A stretch of DNA of 64,000 nucleotides from a virus (Duplodnaviria; Heunggongvirae; Uroviricota; Caudoviricetes), in IMG/VR virus record IMGVR_UViG_651053023_000001, positions 1 through 64,000 of that record, one strand, 5' to 3'. The notes under the pieces are model-generated. The model had not been told where the DNA came from, searched no databases, and saw only the letters and a program-made list of their open reading frames with translations. A program made the translations under genes and the position numbers. Of the stretch, positions 2,071 through 50,679 are shown one piece after another. Numbering within the stretch: the first letter of the stretch is position 1; the number at the start of each line of letters is the position of its first letter.

Positions 2071-3183
2071 TCATTCAGCCGCCACCGGTTTTAACAAGCC
2101 AGCATCGAGCAGTTTACGCGTCAACCACTGCTGGCCTTTACCCGTTAATTGAGGCGTCAGCCGTATCTGATAGCCATCTTCATCATCCAGCACCACTTCT
2201 TTCACTGTGAAATATCCGGCGTTTATGTACTGCTGAAACGGTACATTTTTACGTCCGCCGGACGCAATCAGGATGCCGTTCTCCCGTAACCAGGCAAACA
2301 GCGCATTTTGCTTAAGTCCAACAACCTTTGCAAAATTCCCAATCAGGATCCCCTTAGCCACTGATACCCGGTCGGCAAAATCGACCTTAGGGGCTGCGGC
2401 CACCAGCTGCTGATTTAGCTGGTGGGCTTTCTGTTCCAGAAGTTGCTTTTGTTCAGCCAGCTCGGCAGCCAGGCGCAGAGCTTCGGGAAGCGTCTGAGGG
2501 ATTGCGACCGGTTGCTGTTCTTTTTGCCGGAAGTAGCTGTCTTCCAGTTTTTCAAAGAATGCCCATGCCTGATCGGTTTCGATCATTTTAGCGTGGCGGG
2601 CTGCGCCGCGTTCCGTCCAGAGAGTGAGGTTTCTGGCGTTCTTACCAACAGAGTTACTAAAAGTAACTCTGTTCTTAAATTCTCTTAATTTTGAACCAGT
2701 TAAAAGAAAGTAGTGTTTACCTTCTTCAAAGCGATCGGAGTTGCAAGACAAATTTTTACGAATATTGCCTTCATCGGTTCCGTACCCCTTAGCAAGAGTT
2801 TCGGTTGTTACGACACGTACTCCCTGCCATTCCAGAACGGGAATTTCATCCGGCTGATTTTGAACAACCACCAGCTCCGATTCCTGAACTGAAGGTGCAT
2901 GAATTTTTTCTGATTTAACGTTAGTTGCTTTCATTCTGTGTGCCTCCTTGCGTGCTTCGGCTGCGACGGTTGCGTAATTCAGATGACCCTGTTCGAGCAG
3001 GTATTCGCGGATATCAGACAACAGGATACGGTGAACCGCGTGTTTGTCCTTTCTCCGGTAAAGTTGTTTGGTGATCATGAAGTAGTTGGCAATAACGCCT
3101 GGTATATCCCTGGTGCTGATACAGGCAGTGTGCTGTTCAATTGCCTCGATCATCTCTTCACGGGTGACTAATGACGTTCTCAT
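2071..3183 (-). CDS. antirepressor-like protein, copy A (ORF6N/Bro-N-like N-terminal region plus KilA-C/ANT C-terminal domain)
   Basis: 370 aa; C-terminal ~150 aa (PQTLPEALRLAAELAEQK...KVDFADRVSVA...GKGQQWLTRKLLDAG) shared with the canonical Ant (47170..48213) and with KilA; preceded by an icd-like ORF overlapping by ATGA. Confidence 0.8.
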   Translation of the reverse strand: MRTSLVTREEMIEAIEQHTACISTRDIPGVIANYFMITKQLYRRKDKHAVHRILLSDIREYLLEQGHLNYATVAAEARKEAHRMKATNVKSEKIHAPSVQESELVVVQNQPDEIPVLEWQGVRVVTTETLAKGYGTDEGNIRKNLSCNSDRFEEGKHYFLLTGSKLREFKNRVTFSNSVGKNARNLTLWTERGAARHAKMIETDQAWAFFEKLEDSYFRQKEQQPVAIPQTLPEALRLAAELAEQKQLLEQKAHQLNQQLVAAAPKVDFADRVSVAKGILIGNFAKVVGLKQNALFAWLRENGILIASGGRKNVPFQQYINAGYFTVKEVVLDDEDGYQIRLTPQLTGKGQQWLTRKLLDAGLLKPVAAE

Positions 3184-3401
3184 AGCCCCTCCTGAGCAGA
3201 AGCGTTAACAGGGAGGCACCAGTAACTGAGAGAATTGCGCAAATCGGTAGAAAAGCGGGCAGAGAAAATACAGGGAGCATCCGGAAGCTGAGAACGTGCC
3301 TCATCTTCTGTTGGTGCGATAACGAAGTGATAGTGACGTTTCTGGCAGGAGTAAAAGCGCCAGATAAATTCAGGGCGTGCGCAAGGATTGGCATTAACCA
3401 T
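3180..3401 (-). CDS. Icd-like small protein, copy A
   Basis: 73-aa ORF MVNANPCARPEFIWRFYSC... overlapping the ant start; same arrangement as icd-ant in the canonical immI copy. Confidence 0.7.
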   Translation of the reverse strand: MVNANPCARPEFIWRFYSCQKRHYHFVIAPTEDEARSQLPDAPCIFSARFSTDLRNSLSYWCLPVNASAQEGL

Positions 3402-3444
3402 AGTTACGGCCTCATGTACAGGTTTAACAACCTGCTACCCGCTG

Positions 3445-3525
3445 CTAAACGGGTGGCAGGACGTGACGGGGTTAGCAGACTGGCGTACATGAAACCAGCA
3501 GGCCGAAGCCTCCCCATCACGCCCC
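3445..3525 (-). ncRNA. c4-like antisense RNA, copy A (approximate bounds)
   Basis: Conserved leader block upstream of icd carrying a 6-nt element (ATGTAC in RNA sense) complementary to GTACAT overlapping the icd ribosome-binding site and to a second GTACAT further upstream. Confidence 0.4.
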
Positions 3526-3702
3526 ACCATAATTCGGGCGTAACGCGGTTTTACGGACATAAAAATACCGCAATATCGGAAATCTGCGGTTGTCCGCATG
3601 TACATTCAGGCTGCTAAACCCGGTCGCAGAATTTGCTACGACGTAGGAACTATAAGCCTGAACAACAGGAAGATCAATAGTCTGGCGTCCAATAGTAGTT
3701 TA

Positions 3703-3735
3703 TTTGCTCTAATAAATCAAATTTATTAGAGCAAT
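3703..3735. promoter_or_regulatory. overlapping head-to-head pair of C1 operator sites
   Basis: TTTGCTCTAATAAATCA on top strand and ATTGCTCTAATAAATTT on bottom strand, forming a palindrome. Confidence 0.65.
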
Positions 3736-3994
3736 AACAATCTAGTTGAATGTTTCCTCTCTGAGGTTGCAATGTGCACACTTAGTGCCTTATTTGTATG
3801 CACTAATAAATATATTATTTTTAACAATAAATAATTGACAACTGACAAGTGACTTCAGTCAGAATCATCACACGCCCGGTACGGATGGATCCCTTTTCAA
3901 ATATTCCATGGACGGCACAGTCTGAGTACCGGGCGCTACCTTAAGTTGTATTGCTAAGCCGCCGCTGGTGGCTTTTCTTTTTTGTAGGGGCGCT

Positions 3995-4636
3995 ATGGAT
4001 AAGAAAATATGCGTTGTTTCGATGAGCGTCGGCAAACCGGCGTCAATGACTGCTGCATGGATCAACAACGAGCTGATAATGGCTGAGCGGACCAGCTACC
4101 CTGAACGCCGCCGCGATATGGAACTCCAGCTGCTGCGCGAATTGCGAGAAAAAGAGGAAAAGGGTTTTATCGTGCTGGTGGAAGAGGAAAACAGCTTTAT
4201 TACTGGTCGAGTTGGCCAGCGTGTAAGGTTGCGCGATCCCTTCATGAACGGCAGGCCGGTACTAATTGAGGCCATGCAGATTTATAAGGAGCTGGAACGC
4301 CAGAAAGCAATCAAGTTACCGCGCAAGGAATCCGGCAAATACATCCTCCACCAAAGCATCTTCGATTCCGAACACGACAAAAAAGGCGATGAATTTTTCA
4401 ACATCAACTGGAGCGAAATAACGACAGAGCATGTTCTGACGTTACTATGTTGCTTTGCGACGGAATACAACAACGTTGCCAGCGCAGACTACATCAGGGC
4501 AATGGCTGGAGAAGTTGAGGCACGCCAGGAACCATCGTTACTAAGCCCTCTGATTAACATAATTCGCGGCACACAGAGACTTGCGGAAAAAAGCGTTCCA
4601 CACGGAATCTTAACTGGGAAGGGAAACTATTTTTAA
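3995..4636 (+). CDS. hypothetical protein (core of the inverted-repeat structure)
   Basis: ORF from ATG at 3995 (track ORF starts 3968) with AGGGG 5 nt upstream; no family recognised by eye. Confidence 0.5.
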   Translation: MDKKICVVSMSVGKPASMTAAWINNELIMAERTSYPERRRDMELQLLRELREKEEKGFIVLVEEENSFITGRVGQRVRLRDPFMNGRPVLIEAMQIYKELERQKAIKLPRKESGKYILHQSIFDSEHDKKGDEFFNINWSEITTEHVLTLLCCFATEYNNVASADYIRAMAGEVEARQEPSLLSPLINIIRGTQRLAEKSVPHGILTGKGNYF

Positions 4637-4669
4637 CATCCCCAAATCCTTTTGGGGAACAACTCATTC

Positions 4670-4987
4670 TTACAATAGCTGCCCCATACATTGTCTCCAG
4701 GCACTCCCCTCATTACCGTTATCAAGAAACGTAGAGGTTGCATAAGGAATGCCTCTGATTTGTGTTGATGTGAATGGACCATCAGACGTCGAAGTTGTGC
4801 GCAGTTTTGATGTAAACTCGTAATTTCCACTGATGCCTTTCTCTGCCAGAGCTTTTGATTTTGTGATAACTAAATCTGCACATTTCTCTGCGGCTACATA
4901 TTGCGGGTCTTTTTCAGCTTTTCCGGCACATGCAGTTATCGTTAAAACGATAGCTGCGGCTAACAAATTACCTAGTTTCATCTGCAT
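4670..4987 (-). CDS. small lipoprotein (signal peptide with lipobox LTITAC)
   Basis: 105 aa; N-terminal MQMKLGNLLAAAIVLTITAC is a typical lipoprotein signal peptide with cysteine; two further Cys in the mature part. Confidence 0.55.
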   Translation of the reverse strand: MQMKLGNLLAAAIVLTITACAGKAEKDPQYVAAEKCADLVITKSKALAEKGISGNYEFTSKLRTTSTSDGPFTSTQIRGIPYATSTFLDNGNEGSAWRQCMGQLL

Positions 4988-5086
4988 ACCTTATTAAGTG
5001 CATTAAAAACAGTAGGTTGCCAAGGTTTTAAACAAATTTCAATTCTCCATGACGCTCAACATGAGCAAAAATAACACACAACCCTC

Positions 5087-5120
5087 ATTGCTCTAATAAA
5101 TTTGATTTATTAGAGCAAAT
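5087..5120. promoter_or_regulatory. overlapping head-to-head pair of C1 operator sites
   Basis: ATTGCTCTAATAAATTT (perfect consensus) at 5087..5103 and its partner ATTTGCTCTAATAAATC on the bottom strand at 5104..5120. Confidence 0.65.
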
Positions 5121-5294
5121 ATCCTACCATTGCGCATAGCCCTATTGATCTCCTTACCGTTCAGGCTTATATTCATGCCGTCGTAGCAAATTCTGCGACC
5201 GGGTTTAGCAGCCTGAATACTTACGCGGACAACCGCAGATATCCGATATTGCGGTATTTTCATGTCCGTATAACCACGTTACGCCCGAATTATG

Positions 5295-5375
5295 GTGGGG
5301 CGTGATGGGGAGGCTTCGGCCTGCTGGTTTCGTAAGTGCCAGTCTGCTAACCCCGTCACGTCCTGCCACCTGTTT
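5295..5375 (+). ncRNA. c4-like antisense RNA, copy B (approximate bounds)
   Basis: Same conserved block as copy A but the 6-nt element is GTAAGT, complementary to ACTTAC at the icd ribosome-binding site (5404..5410) and at 5219..5225. Confidence 0.4.
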
Positions 5376-5420
5376 AGCAGCGGGTCGCAGGTTGTTTTAT
5401 CAACTTACGAGGCCGTAACT

Positions 5421-5642
5421 ATGGTTAATGCCAATCCTTGCGCACGCCCTGAATTTATCTGGCGCTTTTACTCCTGCCAAAAACGTCACTATCACTTCGT
5501 TATTGCACCAACAGAAGATGAGGCCCGCTCTCAGCTTCCTGACGCCCCATGTATTTTCTCTGCCCGCTTTTCTACCGATTCGCGCAATTCTCTCAGTTAC
5601 TGGTGCCTCCCTGTTAACGCTTCTGCTCAGGAGGGGCTATGA
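5421..5642 (+). CDS. Icd-like small protein, copy B
   Basis: 73 aa from ATG 5421 (track ORF 5292..5642 carries an unsupported N-terminal extension); one residue differs from copy A; overlaps the ant start. Confidence 0.7.
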   Translation: MVNANPCARPEFIWRFYSCQKRHYHFVIAPTEDEARSQLPDAPCIFSARFSTDSRNSLSYWCLPVNASAQEGL

Positions 5643-6757
5643 GAACGTCATTAGTCACCCGTGAAGAGATGATCGAGGCAATTGAACAGCACACTGCCTG
5701 TATCAGCACCAGGGATATACCAGGCGTTATTGCCAACTACTTCATGATCACCAAACAACTTTACCGGAGAAAGGACAAACACGCGGTTCACCGTATCCTG
5801 TTGTCTGATATCCGCGAATACCTGCTCGAACAGGGTCATCTGAATTACGCAACCGTCGCAGCCGAAGCACGCAAGGAGGCACACAGAATGAAAGCAACTA
5901 ACGTTAAATCAGAAAAAATTCATGCACCTTCAGTTCAGGAATCGGAGCTGGTGGTTGTTCAAAATCAGCCGGATGAAATTCCCGTTCTGGAATGGCAGGG
6001 AGTGCGTGTAGTGACAACCGAGACTCTTGCTAGAGGGTATGGGACAGAAACAATCCGTATTCGCCAAAATCATCATGAGAACAAAGTACGCTTTGTTGAA
6101 GGGAAGCACTTTTTCAAAGTTGAAGGAGAATCATTGCGCGAGTTGAAGCACAGAGTAGCTTTAAACTACTCTGTAAAAATTGCTCGCAATGTTCGCTCAC
6201 TCACCCTCTGGACAGAACGCGGCGCAGCCCGCCACGCTAAAATGCTCGAAACCGATCAGGCATGGGCATTCTTTGAAAAACTGGAAGACAGCTACTTCCG
6301 GCAAAAAGAACAGCAACCGGTTGCAATCCCCCAGACGCTTCCAGAAGCTCTGCGCCTGGCTGCCGAACTGGCTGAACAAAAGCAGCTTCTGGAACAGAAA
6401 GCCCACCAGCTAAATCAGCAGCTGGTGGCCGCCTCTCCTAAAGTCGATTTTGCCGACCGGGTATCAGTAGCTAAAGGGATCCTGATTGGGAATTTTGCAA
6501 AGGTTGTTGGTCTTAAGCAAAACGCGCTGTTTGCCTGGTTACGGGAGAACGGCATCCTGATAGCGTCCGGTGGACGTAAAAATGTGCCGTTCCAGCAGTA
6601 CATCAATGCGGGATATTTCACGGTGAAAGAAGTGGTGCTGGATGATGAAGATGGCTACCAGATACGGTTGACGCCTCAATTAACGGGTAAAGGCCAGCAG
6701 TGGTTGACGCGTAAACTGCTCGATGCTGGCTTGTTAAAACCGGTGGCGGCTGAATAA
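5639..6757 (+). CDS. antirepressor-like protein, copy B
   Basis: 372 aa; identical to copy A over the first ~131 aa and the C-terminal ANT/KilA-C domain, with a divergent patch between. Confidence 0.8.
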   Translation: MRTSLVTREEMIEAIEQHTACISTRDIPGVIANYFMITKQLYRRKDKHAVHRILLSDIREYLLEQGHLNYATVAAEARKEAHRMKATNVKSEKIHAPSVQESELVVVQNQPDEIPVLEWQGVRVVTTETLARGYGTETIRIRQNHHENKVRFVEGKHFFKVEGESLRELKHRVALNYSVKIARNVRSLTLWTERGAARHAKMLETDQAWAFFEKLEDSYFRQKEQQPVAIPQTLPEALRLAAELAEQKQLLEQKAHQLNQQLVAASPKVDFADRVSVAKGILIGNFAKVVGLKQNALFAWLRENGILIASGGRKNVPFQQYINAGYFTVKEVVLDDEDGYQIRLTPQLTGKGQQWLTRKLLDAGLLKPVAAE

Positions 6758-6790: not shown

Positions 6791-6904
6791 AAATGTCTCT
6801 TCAGCACATTACCGAAGTTCAATCTTCAACCAAGAAGTGGACTCGCATACGATTATCGCAATAAAATACTTGAAGTTTTATAAACTGTGAGTATCATTAC
6901 CCAT

Positions 6905-7360
6905 ATGAAAACATCCTATTTAACTATATTGGCTTTCCATATTCGCGATTTTCGCGAGAAGCATGGTGTTACTCAATCAGACATTGCATCTGGCCTTGGG
7001 ATAACAAGTGCCGGCTGGGGAAAAATTGAAAATGGTAAGTCCTCTCTCTCTGTAGAGAATATGATGAAATTCTGTAAAATCATTAATATTGATGCAACCA
7101 TACTTCTTGATATTTCCACAAAATCGGCAAAAAACTTAATCAAATGTGGATGGAGTGTATCTTATTCTCCTGTTGAGGATGATAATTTAATAGACGGAAA
7201 AAATATATTTGCTAAAACACATGGAATGAATAACGTTATGAGGAAATTTATAGACGGGAAACTTGGAAGTGTTTTAGACAAAGAATTTGATGATATTATT
7301 ATGAAATATGCAACATTTTATATGGTTGTAGCTAAAAATCTAAGAGATGACTTGATTTAA
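6905..7360 (+). CDS. XRE-family helix-turn-helix protein with C-terminal domain of unknown function
   Basis: HTH signature GVTQSDIASGLGITSAGWGKIENGKSSLSVENMMKF; AT-rich codon usage; start taken at ATG 6905 (track ORF begins at GTG 6887). Confidence 0.6.
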   Translation: MKTSYLTILAFHIRDFREKHGVTQSDIASGLGITSAGWGKIENGKSSLSVENMMKFCKIINIDATILLDISTKSAKNLIKCGWSVSYSPVEDDNLIDGKNIFAKTHGMNNVMRKFIDGKLGSVLDKEFDDIIMKYATFYMVVAKNLRDDLI

Positions 7361-7375
7361 AAATGGAGTGTACAT

Positions 7376-8128
7376 ATGGCATACAGAAAAGACAGCGATC
7401 TTGAATTCCTAGCTAAATGTAGCGACCGTGATCTTGATGATTTAGTTAACCTATTGATTTATGATAACGATGGCAAAAAAAGATGGACTGAAGAGTTATC
7501 TAACAATCGACAATATAAGGAATTTGCACCAAGACATAGCGTATATTGGAGAGAAATTGCTGCTGAAATTCAATGTTATGGTGGAAATACCATAGCAACT
7601 CTCTTGCGTGGTGGTAAAGGGGTCTGCTACAGAGAAATTCTCATTGATGTATGCAATAAGCTAAAGGTTAATTTCAATGCCAAGAGCCGAATAGAGGTTA
7701 TTGAACAAAATCTTCTATTAAAAATTCTCAGCGACTCTCTAGATAACATGTCATCCGAAGATATAAAAGTTTTTGCCATGGAACTTGGATTGGATGAAGT
7801 TACAAGATTTACTCCTGAGGCAGTTCTATCTGCCTTCCAATATATTTTCAGGGCCGGCGGTTTCAGATCTTATCAGGTAACTCTTAAATTTGCGAATCTT
7901 TTACTAAAAATTTTAATTGGACGCGGTTTAACACTCGCAGGTAATCAAATACTCGTAAAAGCATTATCTATTTTAACAGGCCCAATTGGTTGGGCTATAA
8001 CAGCCGCATGGACCATTGTAGATGTGGGAGGAACTGCTTATCGAGTAACAATTCCTGCTGTTATTCAAGTTGCTGTACTAAGGGCGAAAGTCAATAATAA
8101 TATTAAAGACAGCGATATTACCTTGTGA
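7376..8128 (+). CDS. hypothetical 250-aa protein with C-terminal hydrophobic segment; candidate effector of a two-gene accessory cassette
   Basis: ATG with GGAG 7 nt upstream, 15 bp after the HTH gene; hydrophobic stretch LTGPIGWAITAAWTIVDVGG near the C-terminus; AT-rich. Confidence 0.65.
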   Translation: MAYRKDSDLEFLAKCSDRDLDDLVNLLIYDNDGKKRWTEELSNNRQYKEFAPRHSVYWREIAAEIQCYGGNTIATLLRGGKGVCYREILIDVCNKLKVNFNAKSRIEVIEQNLLLKILSDSLDNMSSEDIKVFAMELGLDEVTRFTPEAVLSAFQYIFRAGGFRSYQVTLKFANLLLKILIGRGLTLAGNQILVKALSILTGPIGWAITAAWTIVDVGGTAYRVTIPAVIQVAVLRAKVNNNIKDSDITL

Positions 8129-29520: not shown

Positions 29521-30081
29521 ATGCTAATAGGCTATGTACGCGTATCAACAAATGAACAAAACACTGCTTTACAACGAAACGCTCTTGAAAGCGCAGGATG
29601 TGAGCTAATTTTTGAGGACAAGGCGAGCGGCAAAAAGGCTGAACGCCCTGGGTTAAAAAAGGTTCTCCGTATGCTTTCCAGAGGTGACACCCTAGTCGTA
29701 TGGAAGTTAGATCGTCTTGGGCGCAGCATGCGTCACTTAGTTGTGCTGGTGGAAGAGCTGCGTGACAGAGGCATTAACTTCCGGAGTCTCACTGACTCCA
29801 TCGACACCAGTACACCAATGGGGCGCTTTTTCTTTCACGTAATGGGGGCGCTGGCTGAAATGGAACGTGAGCTTATCGTTGAACGTACACGCGCTGGACT
29901 TGATGCAGCTCGCGCAGAAGGTCGTATAGGTGGACGTCGGCCTAAATACCAAGAAGAAACATGGCAGCAAATGCGGCGATTGCTCGAGAAGGGCATCCCC
30001 CGTAAGCAGGTTGCAATCATCTATGATGTGGCTGTTTCCACGCTTTATAAGAAGTTTCCGGCGTCATCATTTCAATCCTAA
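29521..30081 (+). CDS. cin: Cin serine DNA invertase
   Basis: 186 aa; serine recombinase N-terminus MLIGYVRVSTNEQN...; abuts a cix site and the invertible segment. Confidence 0.92.
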   Translation: MLIGYVRVSTNEQNTALQRNALESAGCELIFEDKASGKKAERPGLKKVLRMLSRGDTLVVWKLDRLGRSMRHLVVLVEELRDRGINFRSLTDSIDTSTPMGRFFFHVMGALAEMERELIVERTRAGLDAARAEGRIGGRRPKYQEETWQQMRRLLEKGIPRKQVAIIYDVAVSTLYKKFPASSFQS

Positions 30082-30098
30082 ACCTTGGTTTAAGAGAA
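30073..30098 (-). other. cixL crossover site
   Basis: Bottom strand reads TTCTCTTAAACCAAGGTTTAGGATTG, a 26-bp site of the hix/gix/cix type with central AA. Confidence 0.75.
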
Positions 30099-30940
30099 CT
30101 CGGTACCAGCGGTGAAAAGATCCCCCTGTTGAGCACGGCTAACACATGGAGTTCACGCCAGACTTTCAACGGCGGGATCACCGGGGCGCTGGCAGGGAAT
30201 GCCGACACCGCGACGAAATTGAAAACAGCACGCTCGATTGGCGGTGTGGCATTTGATGGCTCGGCCAATATCAATCTTCCAGGTGTAAATACAACAGGTA
30301 ACCAGAACACCACGGGGAATGCTGCTACCGCGACGAAACTTGCGACGGCAAGAAACATCAACGGTGTTAAATTTGATGGTTCTGTGGACATTTCGATACC
30401 AACAATTACGTCCAGAGGGCGTGTTACTGCGCTCACCGGTACAACACAAGGTGCTGCTACTGGATTGCAAATGTATGAGGCGTACAACAACGGCTATCCT
30501 TCTGCTTACGGGAATGTGCTTCATCTTAAGGGCGCAACGGCAGTTGGTGAAGGTGAGTTGTTCATAGGTTGGAGCGGTACAAGTGGCGCTCATGCACCTG
30601 TACATGTACGTTCGCGACGAGATACTGATACAGCCAGTTGGTCAGAGTGGGCGCAGGTCTACACATCGAAGGATTCCATCCCTGGTGTAAATACCACGGG
30701 CAACCAGAACACAACCGGAAACGCGGCGTCTGCAACGAAATTACAAACGGCAAGAACTATTGGTGGTGTTTCATTTAATGGCACCGCAAACATCGACCTG
30801 CCGGGCGTGAATAAAACAGGTAATCAGAACACAACCGGTAATGCAGCGACAGCGACCAAGTTACAAACCGCTCGAACTATAAATGGGGTCTCGTTTGATG
30901 GTTCTAAAAATATTGAGCTAACGGCTGAAAATTTAAATCT
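30084..30940. repeat. left inverted repeat of the invertible C segment (~0.85 kb)
   Basis: Reverse complement of 33971..34827; identical translated ORFs on opposite strands (30153..30605 vs 34306..34758). Confidence 0.85.
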
Positions 30941-32979: not shown

Positions 32980-35900
32980 TTACACCTGTGCTACGTTATA
33001 CCATGTGCCATTGATGTATTTTTGTATTGGTCTGAAGATGGCTTCATCATCGCCATCTACTTCACCAATGATTCTTAATCCGGTAATTGCGTGTCCGGCT
33101 TTTTCATAACGACCACCACGCGCCATCAATTGAACAACACGCGTACCCAGGCGAACATCTTTCACATAGCGTGAGTCAAAATTGCCATAATTTCCGGGAA
33201 TAATTTGCGCACCGCAAAGCCAGTTACCGTTATTGTCCATGTACGCCTGACCATCGGTGCCATTGGCTGTCCTTGAGTTATTAATCATGTAGATGCCAAA
33301 TTGCTTATTTCCCAGACCGCCAATCATAAATTTGCGGTCGGCATGGTCCTGACGGAGCAAGGCCTGAGCACCATCAGTGGATACCGCATTACGTCCCATA
33401 ATAACGTTCTGGTCACGCATATTAATCCACATGCCTGTACTGCTGTTAATAGCAAAACGGTCTGAAAGTGTCTCCCCTGAAACATTAAGGCCACGCCCCA
33501 TCGAAACAGCGCCAGTAGCGTTATTAATCCATAATGGCCTTAATCCGTTATAAGTCCCCATGTTGTCACCGGAGTTTGTCAACATGAAGTATGTATTTGA
33601 ACCATCATTACGAATAAAGAATCCGTAATTACCATAAGCAATACGTAGGCCGTTTGCTGATTTTGATATGACTTCGCCATTTACAATGGCATTGACAAGA
33701 ACATACAAAGCATCCCATTTAAGATTCATCAGGTCTTTTGTTGTGGTGCTTTGTTTGCTTCTCCATTTGAAATATTCATTGCCGTTGTCGCCTGTTTCAA
33801 ACCACATGTATGAATCAGTGTCACCATCAGCATCATTTTTAAATCCAATCTTCGCCCAGTCAGTATTTCGAATCCAGGCAAGGATTGAGTCATTTTTAAA
33901 AGTAAGCCCACCGGACAAAGTATCGCCTGAACGCTGAACGGCATTATTTGCTTTATTAATAAATTCCTGTAGATTTAAATCTTCCGCCGTTAGCTCAATA
34001 TTTTTAGAACCATCAAACGAGACCCCATTTATAGTTCGAGCGGTTTGTAACTTGGTCGCTGTCGCTGCATTACCGGTTGTGTTCTGATTACCTGTTTTAT
34101 TCACGCCCGGCAGGTCGATGTTTGCGGTGCCATTAAATGAAACACCACCAATAGTTCTTGCCGTTTGTAATTTCGTTGCAGACGCCGCGTTTCCGGTTGT
34201 GTTCTGGTTGCCCGTGGTATTTACACCAGGGATGGAATCCTTCGATGTGTAGACCTGCGCCCACTCTGACCAACTGGCTGTATCAGTATCTCGTCGCGAA
34301 CGTACATGTACAGGTGCATGAGCGCCACTTGTACCGCTCCAACCTATGAACAACTCACCTTCACCAACTGCCGTTGCGCCCTTAAGATGAAGCACATTCC
34401 CGTAAGCAGAAGGATAGCCGTTGTTGTACGCCTCATACATTTGCAATCCAGTAGCAGCACCTTGTGTTGTACCGGTGAGCGCAGTAACACGCCCTCTGGA
34501 CGTAATTGTTGGTATCGAAATGTCCACAGAACCATCAAATTTAACACCGTTGATGTTTCTTGCCGTCGCAAGTTTCGTCGCGGTAGCAGCATTCCCCGTG
34601 GTGTTCTGGTTACCTGTTGTATTTACACCTGGAAGATTGATATTGGCCGAGCCATCAAATGCCACACCGCCAATCGAGCGTGCTGTTTTCAATTTCGTCG
34701 CGGTGTCGGCATTCCCTGCCAGCGCCCCGGTGATCCCGCCGTTGAAAGTCTGGCGTGAACTCCATGTGTTAGCCGTGCTCAACAGGGGGATCTTTTCACC
34801 GCTGGTACCGAGTTCTCTTAAACCAAGGTATTGGATAACAGCAAGAACGCTTGTTTTGGCCAGAATATCGCGACCAACTGACGTTAAGTCAGTCTGAGAA
34901 ACAGTGTCTGTACCGGTAAAGTACGGCAATTTATTTGCGCCTGTCGCAAGACCAGCAAGCGCGGTTAAAGTTGCATCAAGTGGCTGTTTCCCTGCCAGCG
35001 CATTTGTCATTGTTGTCGCAAAGTTCGGGTCATTGCCCAGTGCTGCTGCAAGCTCATTCAGGGTATCAAGAGCTTCAGGTGATGAGCCGACCAATGCAGA
35101 GATAGCAGCCCGTACGTAAGCAGTCGTAGCGATCTGCGTATTGTTTGTGCCCTGTGCAGCCGTAGGCGCAGTAGGGACACCCGTTAATGCAGGGCTTGCC
35201 AAAGGCGCTTTGAGAGCCAAGGCATTGTTGATAGTTGTGCTGTAATTCGGGTCGTTATTGATCGCAGCCGCTATTTCTTTCAGCGTATCCAGTGTGCCAG
35301 GCGCACCGTTGATAAGTGCAGTTATAGCTGCCTTAACAAAGGCTGTATTTGCGATCTGCGTGCTGTTTGTACCTTGCGCTGCCGTCGGCGCTGTTGGCGT
35401 TCCTGTCAGACTCGGGCTTTCTATTGGCGCTTTGGTATCAGCCAGATCTTTTATAGACTTAACAGCTTTAGGGGTAGCCGCCATTGTTTCGCTGTCGCTG
35501 TTAGTTGCGCTACTGAGCTGAACTAATCCCTTTTGCGTTGTGCTTGCATCCTGCGCCGTATACTTGCTTTTCGCCAGATCGTAGGCTTTTTTAACTGCCA
35601 GCGAACTTGCCGCAACATCACTTCTGGTACTGGTTACAGAGTCTGAAATATCAATGCCGATAGTGCGGTTGATACGCTCTGATGTATCAATCATCTCTTG
35701 GGTAATGGCAGATACACCAGCAGGAATATTCACCGTACAAACAAGCAGCTCTCCATCTCCTAACTGATATGAATCGGTATAGGTTCTGGCAATAAATTCA
35801 GCCGCATGAATATGTGACGCTGTATTAACCTGATAGGTATCTTCTCCAAGGAGGTATCTTCCCTTCAGCACAATTGCATATTTCTTGCCTGCACTAAGTG

Positions 35901-42300: not shown

Positions 42301-43028
42301 TTTTGCGCACCGCCTTTTTGATCGAACATTTTGCGAGCGTGTTCGGCTGCTTCGGTCCGTTGTGCCTTTATATCCTCTGGTATAGCCTTCCTGCGTCGTT
42401 TTTTACCCTTTGGTGTAGTTGATTTGGCCTGCTGTTCCTGTTGAGCAATGCCCTCCTGAACTACACGAGAAACGTCCCCTAAATTAAGCCGTTTCATTGC
42501 ATCAACAATAGGGTCTACTGATGGCGCATTGGCCACAAAGTCTGGCCGGGAATTTTCGATTGTTCGATTTAATGCCGACACACTGCGAGATACTGGGTCA
42601 ACCGTTGCAACGCGTTCCCCTTTCAAATCACGATCGAGTTTGACCGTTTCTAACCGCTGTGCTTTAACATCCTCTGTTATTGCCTCTCTTCGTCTATTTG
42701 GGGGATTGTGCGCTGTTGGTGCAGCCTGCTGTTCACGGTTAGTGACTTTGTCCTCCCGTATACGAGAAACGTCCCCTAAATTAAGCCGTTTCATTGCGTC
42801 AACAATAGAGTCCACTGATGGCGCATTGGTCACAAAGTCAGGACGTGAATTTTCGATTGTGCGATTTAATGCCGACACACTGCGAGAGACAGGATCAACA
42901 GTTGCAACTCGTTCCCCTTTCAAATCTTCAACAGCTTCCCGAATACCTGCAAGCTCTTCCAGCTCTTTCGCGCTGGCGGTTTCAACTGTCCTTATAACAT
43001 CGTCAATATTGGCGTTTTTTCTTTCCAT
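39333..43028 (-). CDS. sit: Sit-like tape-measure/injection protein with lytic transglycosylase domain
   Basis: 1231 aa; SLT-type motif ...ATESGGNPYAKSQTGALGMFQF...; Gly/Ala/Lys-rich central region; internal tandem duplication. Confidence 0.8.
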   Translation of the reverse strand: MERKNANIDDVIRTVETASAKELEELAGIREAVEDLKGERVATVDPVSRSVSALNRTIENSRPDFVTNAPSVDSIVDAMKRLNLGDVSRIREDKVTNREQQAAPTAHNPPNRRREAITEDVKAQRLETVKLDRDLKGERVATVDPVSRSVSALNRTIENSRPDFVANAPSVDPIVDAMKRLNLGDVSRVVQEGIAQQEQQAKSTTPKGKKRRRKAIPEDIKAQRTEAAEHARKMFDQKGGAQKSQNQRDARGRFIGKSGSKAAAEDARAERAEKARRKEDDERLNAESGLLKKLSKVAEGIGNPSETRAVDALGYAVAGPLWAAGKELGGISKEVGGSLNGARKSIADVIRGNDDNSRRKGFFRRKSQNSADVVQVNTQKRTVQELQEQTSEIKEGNDKILSALDQIAKNTGKKKGGLLSKLFSLLGKGAGGIASLIFGRGVLKKVGSMALGALGIKKVASLLGFGGKKAAAKEAGELATRGAGKLATKGLGKLGVKALAKGALRAIPLVGTVAGGIYDAVTGWNDTEAQRRTFGLKDGEDPSFQQKAAYTLANVLDMGGLVSGISSAIGGVLKSLGFEDIGNMLQSFSTESIAQAIDSGITNLETYISNLGDTISTTFSDYTAKIGDAISAWFSDTTKNLNEKLDAIKNFFTVDNLKQVFSDAIDSAIDFIKNPGKYIKEAGSNLWSAAKELSGEVADAAVQSTPVAWVASKLVNKADAKEVTPELKTPAKESQEDNAPKTEYTPKKANIVTRVVNASLDTAKDSNKTVKETANQIINANAVETGNSALQKIDNAIGQNSSSSSSLNTTGTRNDIQKAADTYNNGNLDVKVGSLGAEGKANLDKLAPYFAELENKYGLPEGTLYAIAATESGGNPYAKSQTGALGMFQFTGIAREETGLAEGESFDPVKSAEAAALLMSKYLKQANGDLNEAITAYNAGFGTINKWKKGTGDLSKENREYAIKVNTHRARYLGGEIYTPGAGAQGGAQYGVRGPLPDNAVIDQSTGLAFTPGDSPFEKGGLVDKIGNAVGVNDLVNKFMNGRGMRREVVQGTLEERARGKGTATAAGNVYVDTPMPVEEARPVANNSSYFDQLGAQMGIDGLFDKLRNSPGMRKNNAPEPASTSQVTTAANDLQQPTGRMQIDGQVISDLGGSGAKPTMQLADNTVSLDGETKRLFAQMTSLLARIEEHTKDSAKGQGTVVKVSTPQPGVMRTVPLSIDDPLMNDYARVD
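42470..42940. repeat. tandem duplication (~297-bp period) inside the sit 5' region
   Basis: Protein repeat DLKGERVATVDPVSRSVSALNRTIENSRPDFV.NAPSVD.IVDAMKRLNLGDVSR occurs twice ~97 aa apart; mirrored in the antisense ORF 42529..43056. Confidence 0.6.
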
Positions 43029-46620: not shown

Positions 46621-46637
46621 CCTGCTCTAATAAATTT
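46621..46637 (+). promoter_or_regulatory. C1 operator-like site upstream of the canonical immI module
   Basis: CCTGCTCTAATAAATTT, 2 mismatches to consensus. Confidence 0.5.
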
Positions 46638-46824
46638 GTATTTTTAAGTCGCGAATGCTATCTTTTCGCATCATATTGACCTTTTAATCGTTCAGGCTTA
46701 TAGTTTCGCCGTCGTAGCAAATTCTGCGACCGGGTTTAGCAGCCTGAATGATTGTGCGGACAGCCGCAGATATCCGATATTGCGGTATTTTTGTGTCCGT
46801 AAAACCGCGTTACGCCCAAATTAT

Positions 46825-46905
46825 GGTGGGGCGTGATGGGGAGGCTTCGGCCTGCTGGTTTCACAATCGCCAGTCTGCTAACCCCGTCACGTCCTGCCAC
46901 CTGTT
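46825..46905 (+). ncRNA. c4: c4 antisense RNA of the canonical immI region (approximate bounds)
   Basis: Conserved leader block with element ACAATC complementary to GATTGT at the icd ribosome-binding site (46933..46939) and at 46750..46756. Confidence 0.45.
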
Positions 46906-46951
46906 TAGCAGCGGGTAGCAGGTTGTTAAACCTGATTGTGAGGCCGTAACT

Positions 46952-47173
46952 ATGGTTAATGCCAATCCTTGCGCACGCCAAGAATTCATCTGGCGTTTCT
47001 ATTCCTGCAAAAAACACCACTATCACTTCGTCATCGCAGCAACAGAAGACGAAGCACGCTCTCAATTGCCTGATGGCCCCTGCATTTTTACTGCCCGTTT
47101 TTCAACTAACTCGCGCAATTCACTTAGTTACTGGAACCTCCCCTTCTCTGCCGACGTTCAGGGGGGTTTATGA
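46952..47173 (+). CDS. icd: Icd (interference with cell division) small protein
   Basis: 73-aa ORF MVNANPCARQEFIWRFYSC... overlapping the ant start, downstream of the c4 leader. Confidence 0.75.
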   Translation: MVNANPCARQEFIWRFYSCKKHHYHFVIAATEDEARSQLPDGPCIFTARFSTNSRNSLSYWNLPFSADVQGGL

Positions 47174-48213
47174 AAAAACCTCTCGTCACCCGTAATGAAA
47201 TAGCCGAAGCGATCGCCCTGCATACAACCTGTATGCCGACACGGGAGATCCCCGGCGCAATTGCCAACTATTTCATGATAACCAGGCGTTTTTATACCCG
47301 AACAGATAAGGCTGTGATCAACAAGCTACTGATAGCCGAGATCAGGGATTATTTGATTGAACAAGGACGTCTACGTTACGCAACAGTGGCAGCAGAAATA
47401 AGAAAGGAGGCACATAGAATGACCGGTAATAATTTGAATGTTGAAAAAACAGCACCTGTTACGTCAGCTACGCCAGCACCAGCCGTGAATATCATCCCCA
47501 ACACCGGAGACACAATCGACAGCCAAACATTGTTGAAGATGGTCAATGAGGCACGCAAGTTATGTGGAGAACCAGAGGTTAGAAACAATAAATTCATCGA
47601 AAAAATACTCGATGAACTTGAAGGTGAATTTTACACAAAAAGTGCAAAATCCCATGGCACAAGGGCTGGGCGCTCTTTTGAGGTCATCACCATGACCTAC
47701 AAACAAGCCCTGCGAGTTGCCGCGCGCGAGTCAAAAGCGGTCCGCCGTTCGCTGATCGACAAACTGGAAGAATTACAGCAGGCAAACTCCCCTACCCCAT
47801 CGATCCCCCAGACATTACCAGAAGCCCTACGCCTGGCTGCCGAGTTAGCAGAACAGAAAATGCAGTTGGAACAACAGCTGGTGGCCGCAGCCCCTAAAGT
47901 CGATTTTGCCGACCGGGTATCAGTGGCCAATGGAATCCTGATCGGGAACTTTGCAAAGGTCGTTGGACTTAAGCAAAACGCCCTTTTCTCATGGTTGCGC
48001 CAGAATGGCATTCTCATGGCTTTTGGAGCGCGCAAAAACGTACCGCGCCAACAGTACATCAACGCCGGGTATTTCACGGTGAAAGAAGTGGTGCTGGATG
48101 ATGAAAATGGCTACCAGATACGGCTGACGCCCCAATTAACGGGTAAAGGCCAGCAGTGGTTAACTCGCAAGCTACTTGATGCTGGTTTGTTAAAACCAGT
48201 AGCAATAGGTTAA
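47170..48213 (+). CDS. ant: Ant antirepressor (canonical immI copy)
   Basis: 347 aa with KilA-C/ANT C-terminal domain; followed by kilA-repL as in P1. Confidence 0.85.
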   Translation: MKKPLVTRNEIAEAIALHTTCMPTREIPGAIANYFMITRRFYTRTDKAVINKLLIAEIRDYLIEQGRLRYATVAAEIRKEAHRMTGNNLNVEKTAPVTSATPAPAVNIIPNTGDTIDSQTLLKMVNEARKLCGEPEVRNNKFIEKILDELEGEFYTKSAKSHGTRAGRSFEVITMTYKQALRVAARESKAVRRSLIDKLEELQQANSPTPSIPQTLPEALRLAAELAEQKMQLEQQLVAAAPKVDFADRVSVANGILIGNFAKVVGLKQNALFSWLRQNGILMAFGARKNVPRQQYINAGYFTVKEVVLDDENGYQIRLTPQLTGKGQQWLTRKLLDAGLLKPVAIG

Positions 48214-48377: not shown

Positions 48378-49178
48378 ATGCAACAAACATTCAATGCGGA
48401 TATGAATATATCAAACCTTCATCAAAATGTCGATCCTTCAACCACTCTGCCCGTTATTTGTGGTGTTGAAATTACGACCGACCGCGCTGGCCGTTACAAC
48501 CTTAATGCTCTACACAGAGCGAGCGGACTCGGTGCCCATAAAGCGCCAGCTCAATGGCTAAGAACGCTGTCAGCTAAACAGCTCATCGAAGAGCTTGAAA
48601 AAGAAACTATGCAGAATTGCATAGTTTCGTTCGAAGGCCGTGGCGGCGGCACTTTTGCCCATGAATTGCTCGCAGTGGAGTACGCTGGTTGGATTTCTCC
48701 CGCGTTTCGGCTGAAGGTAAACCAGACATTTATCGACTATCGAGCCGGAAGATTACAACCTGCTATTCCGCAGAGTCTCCCTGAAGCTCTCCGTTTGGCT
48801 GCCGACCTGGCAGAGCAAAAGCAACGGCTGGAACAAAAAATGCTTATGGATGCACCTAAAGTCGAATTCGCCGAACGCGTTGCTACCGCCAGCGGGGTTC
48901 TAATCGGCAACTATGCCAAAGTGCTCGGTCTGGGCCAAAACTATCTCTTCACCTGGTTGCGTGATAACGGAATTCTGATCGCAACCGGTGAACGCAGGAA
49001 CGTCCCCAAACAAGAATACATATCCCGTGGGTATTTCACCCTTAAAGAAACCGTGATCGATACAAGCAATGGAATCAGGATTTCTTTCACGACTCGTATA
49101 ACCGGCAAAGGTCAGCAGTGGCTGATGAAGCGATTGCTTGATACTGGTGTGCTGGTACCTGTCGCGGCAACGCGCTAA
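48378..49178 (+). CDS. kilA: KilA (KilA-N plus KilA-C domains)
   Basis: 266 aa; C-terminal domain shares PQSLPEALRLAADLAEQK...GKGQQWL with the Ant proteins; precedes repL. Confidence 0.88.
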   Translation: MQQTFNADMNISNLHQNVDPSTTLPVICGVEITTDRAGRYNLNALHRASGLGAHKAPAQWLRTLSAKQLIEELEKETMQNCIVSFEGRGGGTFAHELLAVEYAGWISPAFRLKVNQTFIDYRAGRLQPAIPQSLPEALRLAADLAEQKQRLEQKMLMDAPKVEFAERVATASGVLIGNYAKVLGLGQNYLFTWLRDNGILIATGERRNVPKQEYISRGYFTLKETVIDTSNGIRISFTTRITGKGQQWLMKRLLDTGVLVPVAATR

Positions 49179-49207: not shown

Positions 49208-50053
49208 ATGCTGGCTAAAGTCACTTTCCTGAGCTGTATAACGATGAGCGATTTTACTTTTTCTGGCTATGAATTGGCCTGCTTTGTAACACACTCCGGT
49301 CTATCCCGTAGCGCCGGGCATATCCTGTCGCAATGTGCAAATCTAGCGGCAACAACCAGTGAATACTTCATTCACAAGCCTCACCGCCTGATCGCGGCAG
49401 AAACTGGTTATAGCCAATCAACCGTCGTTCGTGCATTCCGTGAAGCTGTAAACAAAGGAATTCTGTCTGTAGAGATTGTTATCGGCGATCACCGTGAACG
49501 TCGCGCTAACCTGTACCGGTTTACACCATCCTTTTTGGCCTTCGCACAACAAGCCAAAAATGCGCTGATTGAAAGCAAATTAAAGATCTCTTCAGCGGCA
49601 ACCAAGGTTAAAGCTGTTCTCGCTAAGACATTGGCTTTATTTAATTTTTTATCCACACCCCCATGTCAAAATGATACCCCCTCCCCCTGTCAGGATGACG
49701 TGGCAATAAAGAATAAGAAGTCACAAGTTAAAAAAACAGAAAGATCAGTTTCCGGCGGTGCCGGAACGACCAGGCTCAAAAATTTGACTTCCTGGATCGC
49801 TGAGGCAAAAGCAAAGGCTGACAATCTGCGGTTATCCAAAAAACGCGCTCAAAAACATGAGTTCAAGCAGAAAGTAGAGGCGGCAGCGCGGAAATATGCT
49901 TACCTGAAGAACAAGCGTTCTCCTGATATTGGCGGGGTATCAAACTTCGATAATCTGCCGCATTGCATGACGGTAAACGAAGCTCTTAATGCGGTTTTAG
50001 CCAAAAATAAAGATAACGAACAATGGGGTATACCGGCAGGATTCAGAGGGTGA
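49208..50053 (+). CDS. repL: RepL lytic replication initiator
   Basis: 281-aa ORF immediately after kilA, matching the P1 lytic replicon arrangement and size. Confidence 0.85.
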   Translation: MLAKVTFLSCITMSDFTFSGYELACFVTHSGLSRSAGHILSQCANLAATTSEYFIHKPHRLIAAETGYSQSTVVRAFREAVNKGILSVEIVIGDHRERRANLYRFTPSFLAFAQQAKNALIESKLKISSAATKVKAVLAKTLALFNFLSTPPCQNDTPSPCQDDVAIKNKKSQVKKTERSVSGGAGTTRLKNLTSWIAEAKAKADNLRLSKKRAQKHEFKQKVEAAARKYAYLKNKRSPDIGGVSNFDNLPHCMTVNEALNAVLAKNKDNEQWGIPAGFRG

Positions 50054-50349: not shown

Positions 50350-50429
50350 TACAATCGTTGCGGGTGCTTGAGGCTATCAGCTTCAGGCATTACCCGAAAA
50401 GCAGATAGAAGAAAGCCCCAGATAACATT

Positions 50430-50500
50430 ACGCGTCCTGCAAGACGCTTAACATTAATCTGAGGCAATATCTATGCTTAGCATACGTAGATTAGCCTCTT
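50430..50500 (-). ncRNA. putative Sok-like antisense RNA (position inferred)
   Basis: Inferred only from hok/mok architecture, where the antitoxin RNA is antisense to the mok start region; not delimited from sequence. Confidence 0.25.
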
Positions 50501-50679
50501 ACCGACCAAAAGGTCAAGGAGTAGCAGGCTATGAAGCAGCAAAAAGCGATGTTAATCGCTCTGATCGTCATCTGTTTAACCGTCATTGTGACGGCACTGG
50601 TAACGAGGAAAGACCTCTGCGAGGTACGAATCCGAACCGCCCAGACGGAGGTCACTGTCTTCACAGCCTACGAATCTGA
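50473..50679 (+). CDS. mok: Mok-like overlapping reading frame
   Basis: 68-aa ORF overlapping nearly all of hok in another frame, as in hok/sok loci. Confidence 0.5.
   Translation: MLSIRRLASYRPKGQGVAGYEAAKSDVNRSDRHLFNRHCDGTGNEERPLRGTNPNRPDGGHCLHSLRI

Follow-up and report, generated by a model that had tools for sequence, protein, structure and literature searches.

The window analysed here, a stretch of 64,000 nucleotides, is identical in sequence to positions 1-64000 of pUMNF18_103 (NZ_AGTD01000005.1, 103,130 bp), a P1-like (Punavirus) plasmid prophage of the porcine enterotoxigenic Escherichia coli strain UMNF18 that begins at cre, as P1 does. It holds three modules in which the antisense RNA c4 precedes the genes icd and ant (anti-repressor): copy A on the minus strand, and copy B and the canonical immI copy on the plus strand. 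We consider it fairly probable that pUMNF18_103 carries these as three independent switches of the P1/P7 type, each c4 RNA silencing only operons with the matching address. The superinfection immunity of P1-like phage-plasmids is usually described as two types, P1 and P7. The present data suggest that the address space is larger and legible from sequence, and that many elements have several addresses at once.

Each of the three c4 RNAs matched the Rfam family C4 (RF01695) over its full length (1-87 of 87), with 71.7 bits in copy A (3449-3534, minus strand), 70.8 bits in copy B (5288-5373, plus strand) and 69.6 bits in the canonical copy (46819-46904, plus strand), the curated gathering cut-off being 45 bits. 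The c4-a1b1 leader family (RF03163, cut-off 46.7 bits) was matched at 3603-3655 (minus, 53.2 bits), 5167-5219 (plus, 54.6 bits) and 46698-46750 (plus, 54.6 bits). Two short elements of each c4 RNA, b' and a', have their counterparts in the leader (b1 and a1) and in the target region before icd (b2 and a2). The copy A leader (3598-3655, minus) has a1 TTAGCAG at 3611-3617 and b1 GTACAT at 3598-3603, its c4 RNA has b' ATGTAC at 3485-3490 and a' CTGCTAA at 3472-3478, and its target region (3410-3448) has a2 at 3442-3448 and b2 GTACAT at 3414-3419. The corresponding positions in copy B, all on the plus strand, are 5205-5211 (a1) and 5219-5224 (b1 ACTTAC) in the leader at 5167-5224, 5332-5337 (b' GTAAGT) and 5344-5350 (a' CTGCTAA) in c4, and 5374-5380 (a2) and 5403-5408 (b2 ACTTAC) in the target region at 5374-5412. 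Those of the canonical copy, likewise on the plus strand, are 46736-46742 (a1) and 46750-46755 (b1 GATTGT) in the leader at 46698-46755, 46863-46868 (b' ACAATC) and 46875-46881 (a') in a c4 RNA of P7 type, and 46905-46911 (a2) and 46934-46939 (b2 GATTGT) in the target region at 46905-46943. In all three modules b2 lies directly 5' of GAGG, the icd ribosome-binding site. A sequence-only reading of the window had named the same three hexamer sets, which proved exact; its range for the canonical copy (46750 to 46939) was also exact, and its outer limits for copies A and B (3405 and 5411) were 3-9 bases off the outermost hexamers.

Within each module b' is the exact reverse complement of both b1, upstream, and b2, at the ribosome-binding site, and a1, a' and a2 are exactly complementary as well, so that c4 could pair with its target over 7 bp at a and, with constant flanking bases counted, over 8 bp at b. 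The three regions align at 91% overall identity, and the sole blocks that differ in all three are the three hexamers. In the 262 nt that run from the promoter up to the start of icd, the copies differ from one another at 12-15 of the 18 cassette positions versus 8-16 of 244 positions (3-7%) elsewhere, which exceeds chance (Fisher p 1e-9 to 2e-13). The aligned leaders bear out the earlier statement that variable hexamers sit in conserved surroundings. The elements a' (CTGCTAA) and a1/a2 (TTAGCAG) are identical across the three modules, and since all carry this P7-type a element the copies differ from each other only in b.

The predicted minimum-free-energy folds of the three c4 RNAs are identical (-45.4 kcal/mol for copy A, and to -46.2 kcal/mol over the three) and agree with the Rfam structure line. 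Each has a long stem that closes the structure, a UUCG hairpin, and a second hairpin with b' in its loop of 9 nt; a' lies in the single-stranded junction of 7 nt that follows. The closing stem and the 3' GCCACC are kept in all copies. In copy A, b1 is part of an 8-nt palindrome, ATGTACAT (3598-3605), and because of this and of the self-complementary GTAC in the hexamer, the c4 loops of copy A, or their targets, could also pair with themselves.

The genes and control signals around the pairing elements appear intact. Copy A has a putative operator for the C1 repressor that agrees with the exact 17-mer ATTGCTCTAATAAATTT without mismatch (3719-3735, minus); it makes up half of a palindrome, and the remaining half faces a mat-like gene. 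Copy A also has a promoter-like site, TTGATC-17-TATAGT (3649-3677, minus), that aligns with the P1 promoter P1c4 (formerly P51b). In copy B the exact 17-mer (5087-5103, plus) lies within a palindrome, and the promoter-like site, again aligned with P1c4, reads TTGATC-17-TATATT (5145-5173, plus). The putative operator of the canonical copy (46621-46637, plus), equivalent to Op51/Oc4 in the P1 and P7 annotation, has two mismatches to the consensus. All three icd reading frames encode 73 amino acids (3180-3401, minus; 5421-5642, plus; 46952-47173, plus) and overlap the following ant by ATGA. The anti-repressors of copies A and B comprise 370 (2071-3183, minus) and 372 amino acids (5639-6757, plus), and the canonical ant1/ant2 gene encodes 347 (47170-48213, plus).

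The primary transcript of P1 c4 is processed to a 77-nt RNA by RNase P. By pairing with the icd-ant message in the region of the ribosome-binding site, c4 RNA stops anti-repressor synthesis, which is the basis of P1/P7 heteroimmunity (PMC8198154, PMC12197685). If the RNA processing, the translational repression and the action of the anti-repressor on C1 are carried over from this published P1 biology, each module would be transcribed in the plasmid from a promoter downstream of its C1 operator, giving a transcript that includes c4. The loop element b' and the junction element a' would pair with b2 and a2, upstream of and into the icd ribosome-binding site, and the pairing would block translation of icd and, because icd and ant overlap by ATGA, also synthesis of the anti-repressor. 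The address would thus consist of the six variable bases of b' and, in the wider family, of two variable bases of a', and each c4 RNA would silence only an operon with the matching address, in cis or in trans. Written in this way, the addresses of the window are ACAATC/CT (canonical copy, the same as in P7), GTAAGT/CT (copy B, the same as in Salmonella phage SJ46) and ATGTAC/CT (copy A).

Relatives provide the comparative evidence for the pairing. IMG/VR was searched with the constant c4 core, the hexamer being left free, and the scan was split by the first bases to give a full enumeration of 139 modules. Seven b' hexamers were found in these modules (ACAATC, GTAAGT, ACTAAC, ATTCGT, ATGTAC, ACAAGT and TTGAAC), and none starting with AA or AG was found in this core scan. 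The a' element occurred in two types (CT or TC), and twelve b'/a' combinations were seen. Exact complements of c4 were present at b1 in 136/136 modules, at a1 in 136/136, at b2 in 137/138 and at a2 in 138/138. Among 54 distinct related sequences every cell was Watson-Crick, both for c4 with a2/b2 (810/810) and for a1/b1 with c4 (756/756). Both partners had changed in eight pairs, and in no pair had one partner changed alone; when the 3' partner was slid by 1-3 columns as a control, only 27-48% of the cells paired. A further module, in Aeromonas rivuli DSM 22539 (2870-2895 of the extract), has the same constant frame with an eighth b', TTTGTC, facing GACAAA at both b1 and b2, and a third a type, CTGCAAA with TTTGCAG, complementary at all sites, so the addressable frame reaches beyond Enterobacteriaceae. 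A Pedobacter match in the genome scan was rejected as spurious, being unrelated sequence. Altogether one fixed frame accommodates at least 8 b' and 3 a' types, and between any two b' types there are 2 or more base differences (for the Aeromonas type, as judged by inspection).

The single mismatched module among the 139 is in IMGVR_UViG_2565956613_000015, where b' is ATTCGT and b1 ACGAAT, but b2 is GTTAGT. This b2 fits the c4 RNA (ACTAAC/CT) on the other contig of the same isolate. It could be a natural recombinant whose operon the other module controls in trans; a join made in short-read assembly is the alternative, since the contig ends exactly 127 nt upstream of c4 and the sister contig does likewise. 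No conclusion is based on this module.

The covariation strongly supports functional RNA-RNA pairing, as the sequence-only reading had argued from the three copies alone. In alignment with P1 and P7, the hexamers of the window fall on the variable cores of b1, of the c4 loop and of b2 as annotated for P1, with a1, a' and a2 adjoining them, and the perfect covariation of b1 and a1 lends comparative support to sites that are labelled 'putative' targets in the P1 annotation. That label, together with the fact that covariation with c4 is just as perfect at b1 and a1 (136/136) as at b2 and a2, would also suit a mainly intramolecular role, in which pairing of b1 with b' and of a1 with a' in cis controls the folding or processing of c4 and discriminates little between phages. 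We think it very improbable that this is the main cause of the covariation, as it leaves unexplained both the equal covariation of b2 at the ribosome-binding site and the non-repeating addresses within genomes described below. Such pairing in cis is, moreover, compatible with independent switches and does not exclude them.

The earlier reading had taken all three copies for immI modules, and here it has to be corrected. In P1 the canonical immI position is between the tail-tube/sim-side genes and kilA-repL. Only the copy at 46.6-48.2 kb lies before kilA (48378-49178) and repL (49208-50053) and has a P1-type Ant1/Ant2. Copies A and B are instead located between c8 and lxc, copy A at the P1 ref position and copy B at the P1 res-mod position, as the arms of a 929-nt inverted repeat (93%) that encloses the mat-like gene and a small lipoprotein-like open reading frame (ORF). 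The two Ant proteins share 92% identity, with the differences clustering in the ORF6N domain, and are 58% identical to the canonical Ant1. Both retain the Ant1-like N-terminus and the KilAC domain as well as the internal start of Ant2, with ORF6N in the middle of the protein, whereas the canonical Ant1 has no ORF6N and KilAC is its only domain; the Pfam ANT/KilAC domain was found in all three proteins (E 1e-30 to 2e-32). Judged from their location and from an ORF6N-type Ant that is absent from the canonical copy, neither copy A nor copy B is a duplicate of immI; they take the place of ref and res-mod and code for what appears to be a different anti-repressor. A fuzzy core-pattern search of the remaining 64-103 kb of pUMNF18_103 found no fourth P1-type c4, and as this stretch was without an Rfam scan a divergent C4 there is possible.

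Stacking of modules is found well beyond the window. Sequenced reference phages have mostly one module (26 records, 28 places), and at least one was present in 537 of 5426 complete E. coli genomes (about 10%; 665 places), the median per genome being one and the highest count five. PLSDB contained 571 records with 682 places, and twelve isolates in IMG/VR had two to four modules. Within genomes the addresses did not repeat: none of the 28 within-genome pairs in IMG/VR was identical in (b',a') (permutation P = 0.02), and repeats were also absent in pMTY1886, in the four parsed P1-type modules of p88_19539-1 and in the window. Modules that differ only in a within one genome occur in pMTY1886 and on contig 2703718869_000013. 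By Rfam, p88_19539-1 has five C4 genes, four of P1 type with four different addresses and a fifth that is divergent and has an isrK-type leader. The divergent C4 (75.9 bits, at 4611-4800 of the extract) is next to c1, is preceded by an isrK-family leader (RF01394), and precedes another pair of icd and anti-repressor genes both there and in phage vB_EcoM-673R5 (832-919), where its a and b elements are complementary to their own targets if G-U wobbles are counted. Counting P1-type c4 alone therefore underestimates the number of modules per element.

Two plasmids share the inverted A/B architecture of the window at 95-97% identity but differ from it in the address at A, where one has ACAAGT/TC and the other GTAAGT/TC, the latter facing GTAAGT/CT at B. 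Varied addresses in a conserved frame mean that addresses move or turn over, and as the address type is not tied to the Ant type among the IMG/VR modules, recombination must be frequent. This bears on whether copies A and B could be inert leftovers of recombination, with hexamer sets inherited whole from a donor phage and of no present function. The shuffling of address and Ant would fit such an origin, as would the occurrence of the A and B cassette types as canonical immI types elsewhere (GTAAGT in SJ46 and D6, ATGTAC beside a canonical-type Ant) and an internal stop in an ant gene of one 5-module plasmid. However, copies A and B keep exact operators, promoters, c4 folds, open icd and ant frames (73 amino acids; 370 and 372 amino acids) and the start/stop overlap, and the same inverted architecture with different A addresses in other plasmids argues for turnover under selection and not for decay. 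It is thus quite unlikely that the two copies are inert.

More generally, we tentatively suggest, while putting the chance somewhat below even, that P1-like phage-plasmids run a combinatorial antisense address system, in which stacked, non-coinciding addresses are reshuffled by recombination and decide which relatives an element excludes and which it overcomes. If so, a selective advantage would attach to the addresses themselves, and a multi-locus arms race of immunity and anti-immunity would be played out in 6-8 bases per module. In the literature that could be searched, neither further c4 specificities nor the presence of several c4 addresses in one element was found described, and a prior description in older papers or in the D6 genome paper is possible.

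How independent the three controls would be depends on b. The predicted duplexes of the c4 loop with b2 amount to -11 to -12 kcal/mol for cognate pairs versus -1.5 to -3.2 kcal/mol for non-cognate pairs within the window, a wider separation than that given by the P1-versus-P7 loop-target duplex, predicted at about -5 kcal/mol. These energies and the non-repeating addresses fit the earlier proposal of three non-cross-reacting controls; the shared a', in turn, leaves partial cross-talk possible, so that full orthogonality is predicted rather than shown. The three controls might accordingly be real but non-orthogonal, each c4 RNA partly repressing all three operons as one redundant immunity boosted by dosage. 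Such an arrangement would suit the identity of a' CTGCTAA and a1/a2 TTAGCAG in all three modules, and the one heteroimmune pair in the accessible literature, P1 and P7, differs in both a and b and for that reason does not isolate the effect of b. On the other hand, it is b2 and not a2 that abuts the ribosome-binding site, the non-cognate b duplexes are predicted to be far weaker than the cognate ones, and the perfect covariation of six b positions in nature would be lost were b dispensable. In addition, the genomes with modules that differ only in a suggest that either element can define a distinct address. We therefore regard a single redundant immunity as unlikely.

Several points nevertheless weigh against three independent switches. 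The shared a'/a2 gives seven a-pairs common to every combination of c4 RNA and target, which could allow cross-repression, and that a mismatch in b alone abolishes repression is reportedly a result of Citron and Schuster (1990). AntA and AntB, the anti-repressors of copies A and B, have a middle domain (ORF6N) unlike that of P1 Ant1, and their action on C1 is putative. The test of non-redundancy is only modestly significant, and the sampled genomes are phylogenetically related. Finally, pUMNF18_103 carries insertion sequence (IS) elements plus an enterotoxin insertion and for this reason may not be a functional phage.

Should the three switches act as proposed, incoming relatives that have any of the three addresses would have their anti-repressors silenced by a lysogen. 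As copy B has the SJ46 address and the canonical copy the P7 address, the c4 RNAs of the plasmid should act in trans on phages of these two types and shut off their anti-repressors. To silence the three anti-repressors of the plasmid itself, a cell would have to provide every one of the three c4 RNAs, and hence as an infecting phage the element would escape a resident prophage lacking even one of the three addresses. Coexistence, exclusion and induction among phage-plasmids would then be readable from 6-8 bases per module, with a bearing on the spread of their cargo genes, and the natural addresses would form a ready-made set of orthogonal translational switches based on small RNAs. P1-like phage-plasmids carry resistance and toxin genes. 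In pUMNF18_103 the heat-stable enterotoxin gene sta1 is located beyond the window, between elements of the IS3 and IS21 families (plasmid positions 82806-87585), which makes it a phage-plasmid carrying a virulence gene.

Other features of the window lie beside the modules or apart from them. From the operator of copy A to the mat-like gene, positions 3838-3995 (predicted fold -48.1 kcal/mol, z-score -2.2) contain a strong hairpin followed by a terminator-like stem (3956-3974) and its T run, just ahead of an ATG at 3995. The N-terminal extension annotated for P1 Mat is interrupted by a stop here, and thus this ATG is probably the true start of the mat-like gene, and the hairpin region might serve as a leader or attenuator or be a small RNA. 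An unannotated ORF of 105 amino acids that lies between mat and copy B (4670-4987) is lipoprotein-like. Downstream of copy B, positions 6887-8128 encode a helix-turn-helix (Xre-type) regulator and a DUF3944 protein at the place of the EcoP1 res-mod genes of P1. Directly downstream of repL a match to the sok antitoxin RNA (50362-50536; Rfam RF01794, 109.7 bits) indicates a hok/sok-type locus for post-segregational killing. Inverted repeats of 866 nt (30075-30940 and 33971-34836, 100% identical) enclose about 3 kb with 120-nt repeats inside, a region resembling the invertible C-segment for tail fibres in P1-like phages. A 212-nt direct repeat, in two copies 84% identical and 297 nt apart, is found at 42418-42926.

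The closest known counterparts are the immI loci of P1 and P7 themselves, which have the same order of parts as the modules of the window (C1 operator, promoter, a1/b1, c4, a2/b2, icd, ant), are 85-89% identical to a 291-nt query from copy B, and share the predicted fold and the position of b2 at the icd ribosome-binding site. The comparison with their c4 elements that the sequence-only reading had proposed located the same sites. P7 has a' and b' elements equal to those of the canonical copy, and P1 differs from P7 by two bases in b' (ACTAAC versus ACAATC) and by two in a' (CTGTCAA versus CTGCTAA), while the b' elements of copies A and B (ATGTAC and GTAAGT) differ from both. A second c4 copy had been suspected in the P1 sim region, which would have made multiple copies commonplace, and was ruled out: P1, P7, D6 and SJ46 show a single module each, compared with three in pUMNF18_103. 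The sole detected modules of SJ46 (GTAAGT/CT, the address of copy B) and of phage D6 (GTAAGT/TC, with a Roi-type anti-repressor) are at the canonical position. It is established that c4 acts as described and that a few of its bases set immunity specificity, as in P1/P7 heteroimmunity. What appears to be new, on the evidence of sequence comparison, are further addresses, their stacking three deep in the window and up to five deep elsewhere, and a different anti-repressor at the extra loci.

Extra homologues of icd and ant1/2 have been described in the variable region RD-1 of the P1-like plasmid pSvP1 (Venturini et al. 2019, PMC6906374). They correspond to the window in location, with res-mod replaced, and in gene content, and the pSvP1 sequence (MN510446) matches the window at 98% over 69% of a 5.5-kb query. 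The passages of that paper on immI, icd, ant1 and heteroimmunity deal with protein genes only and show no analysis of c4 RNAs or specificity elements, and the word 'antisense' is absent from the text (PMC6906374).

Small RNAs restrain a phage anti-repressor or anti-terminator also in P22 (sar/ant) and in Gifsy-1 (IsrK/AntQ). The likeness to IsrK/AntQ is linked to the present family by the isrK-type leader on the divergent C4 gene of related plasmids. In contrast to P22 sar, which is encoded in cis and fully complementary, c4 is encoded in the transcript of its own target and makes two short, addressable contacts. In the plasmid systems ColE1 RNA I, R1 CopA and hok/sok, short loop sequences set the specificity, and a few base changes create a non-interacting group. 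These systems control replication or post-segregational killing, typically with one system per replicon, unlike the P1-like elements, in which up to five addressed anti-repressor switches are found in one element.

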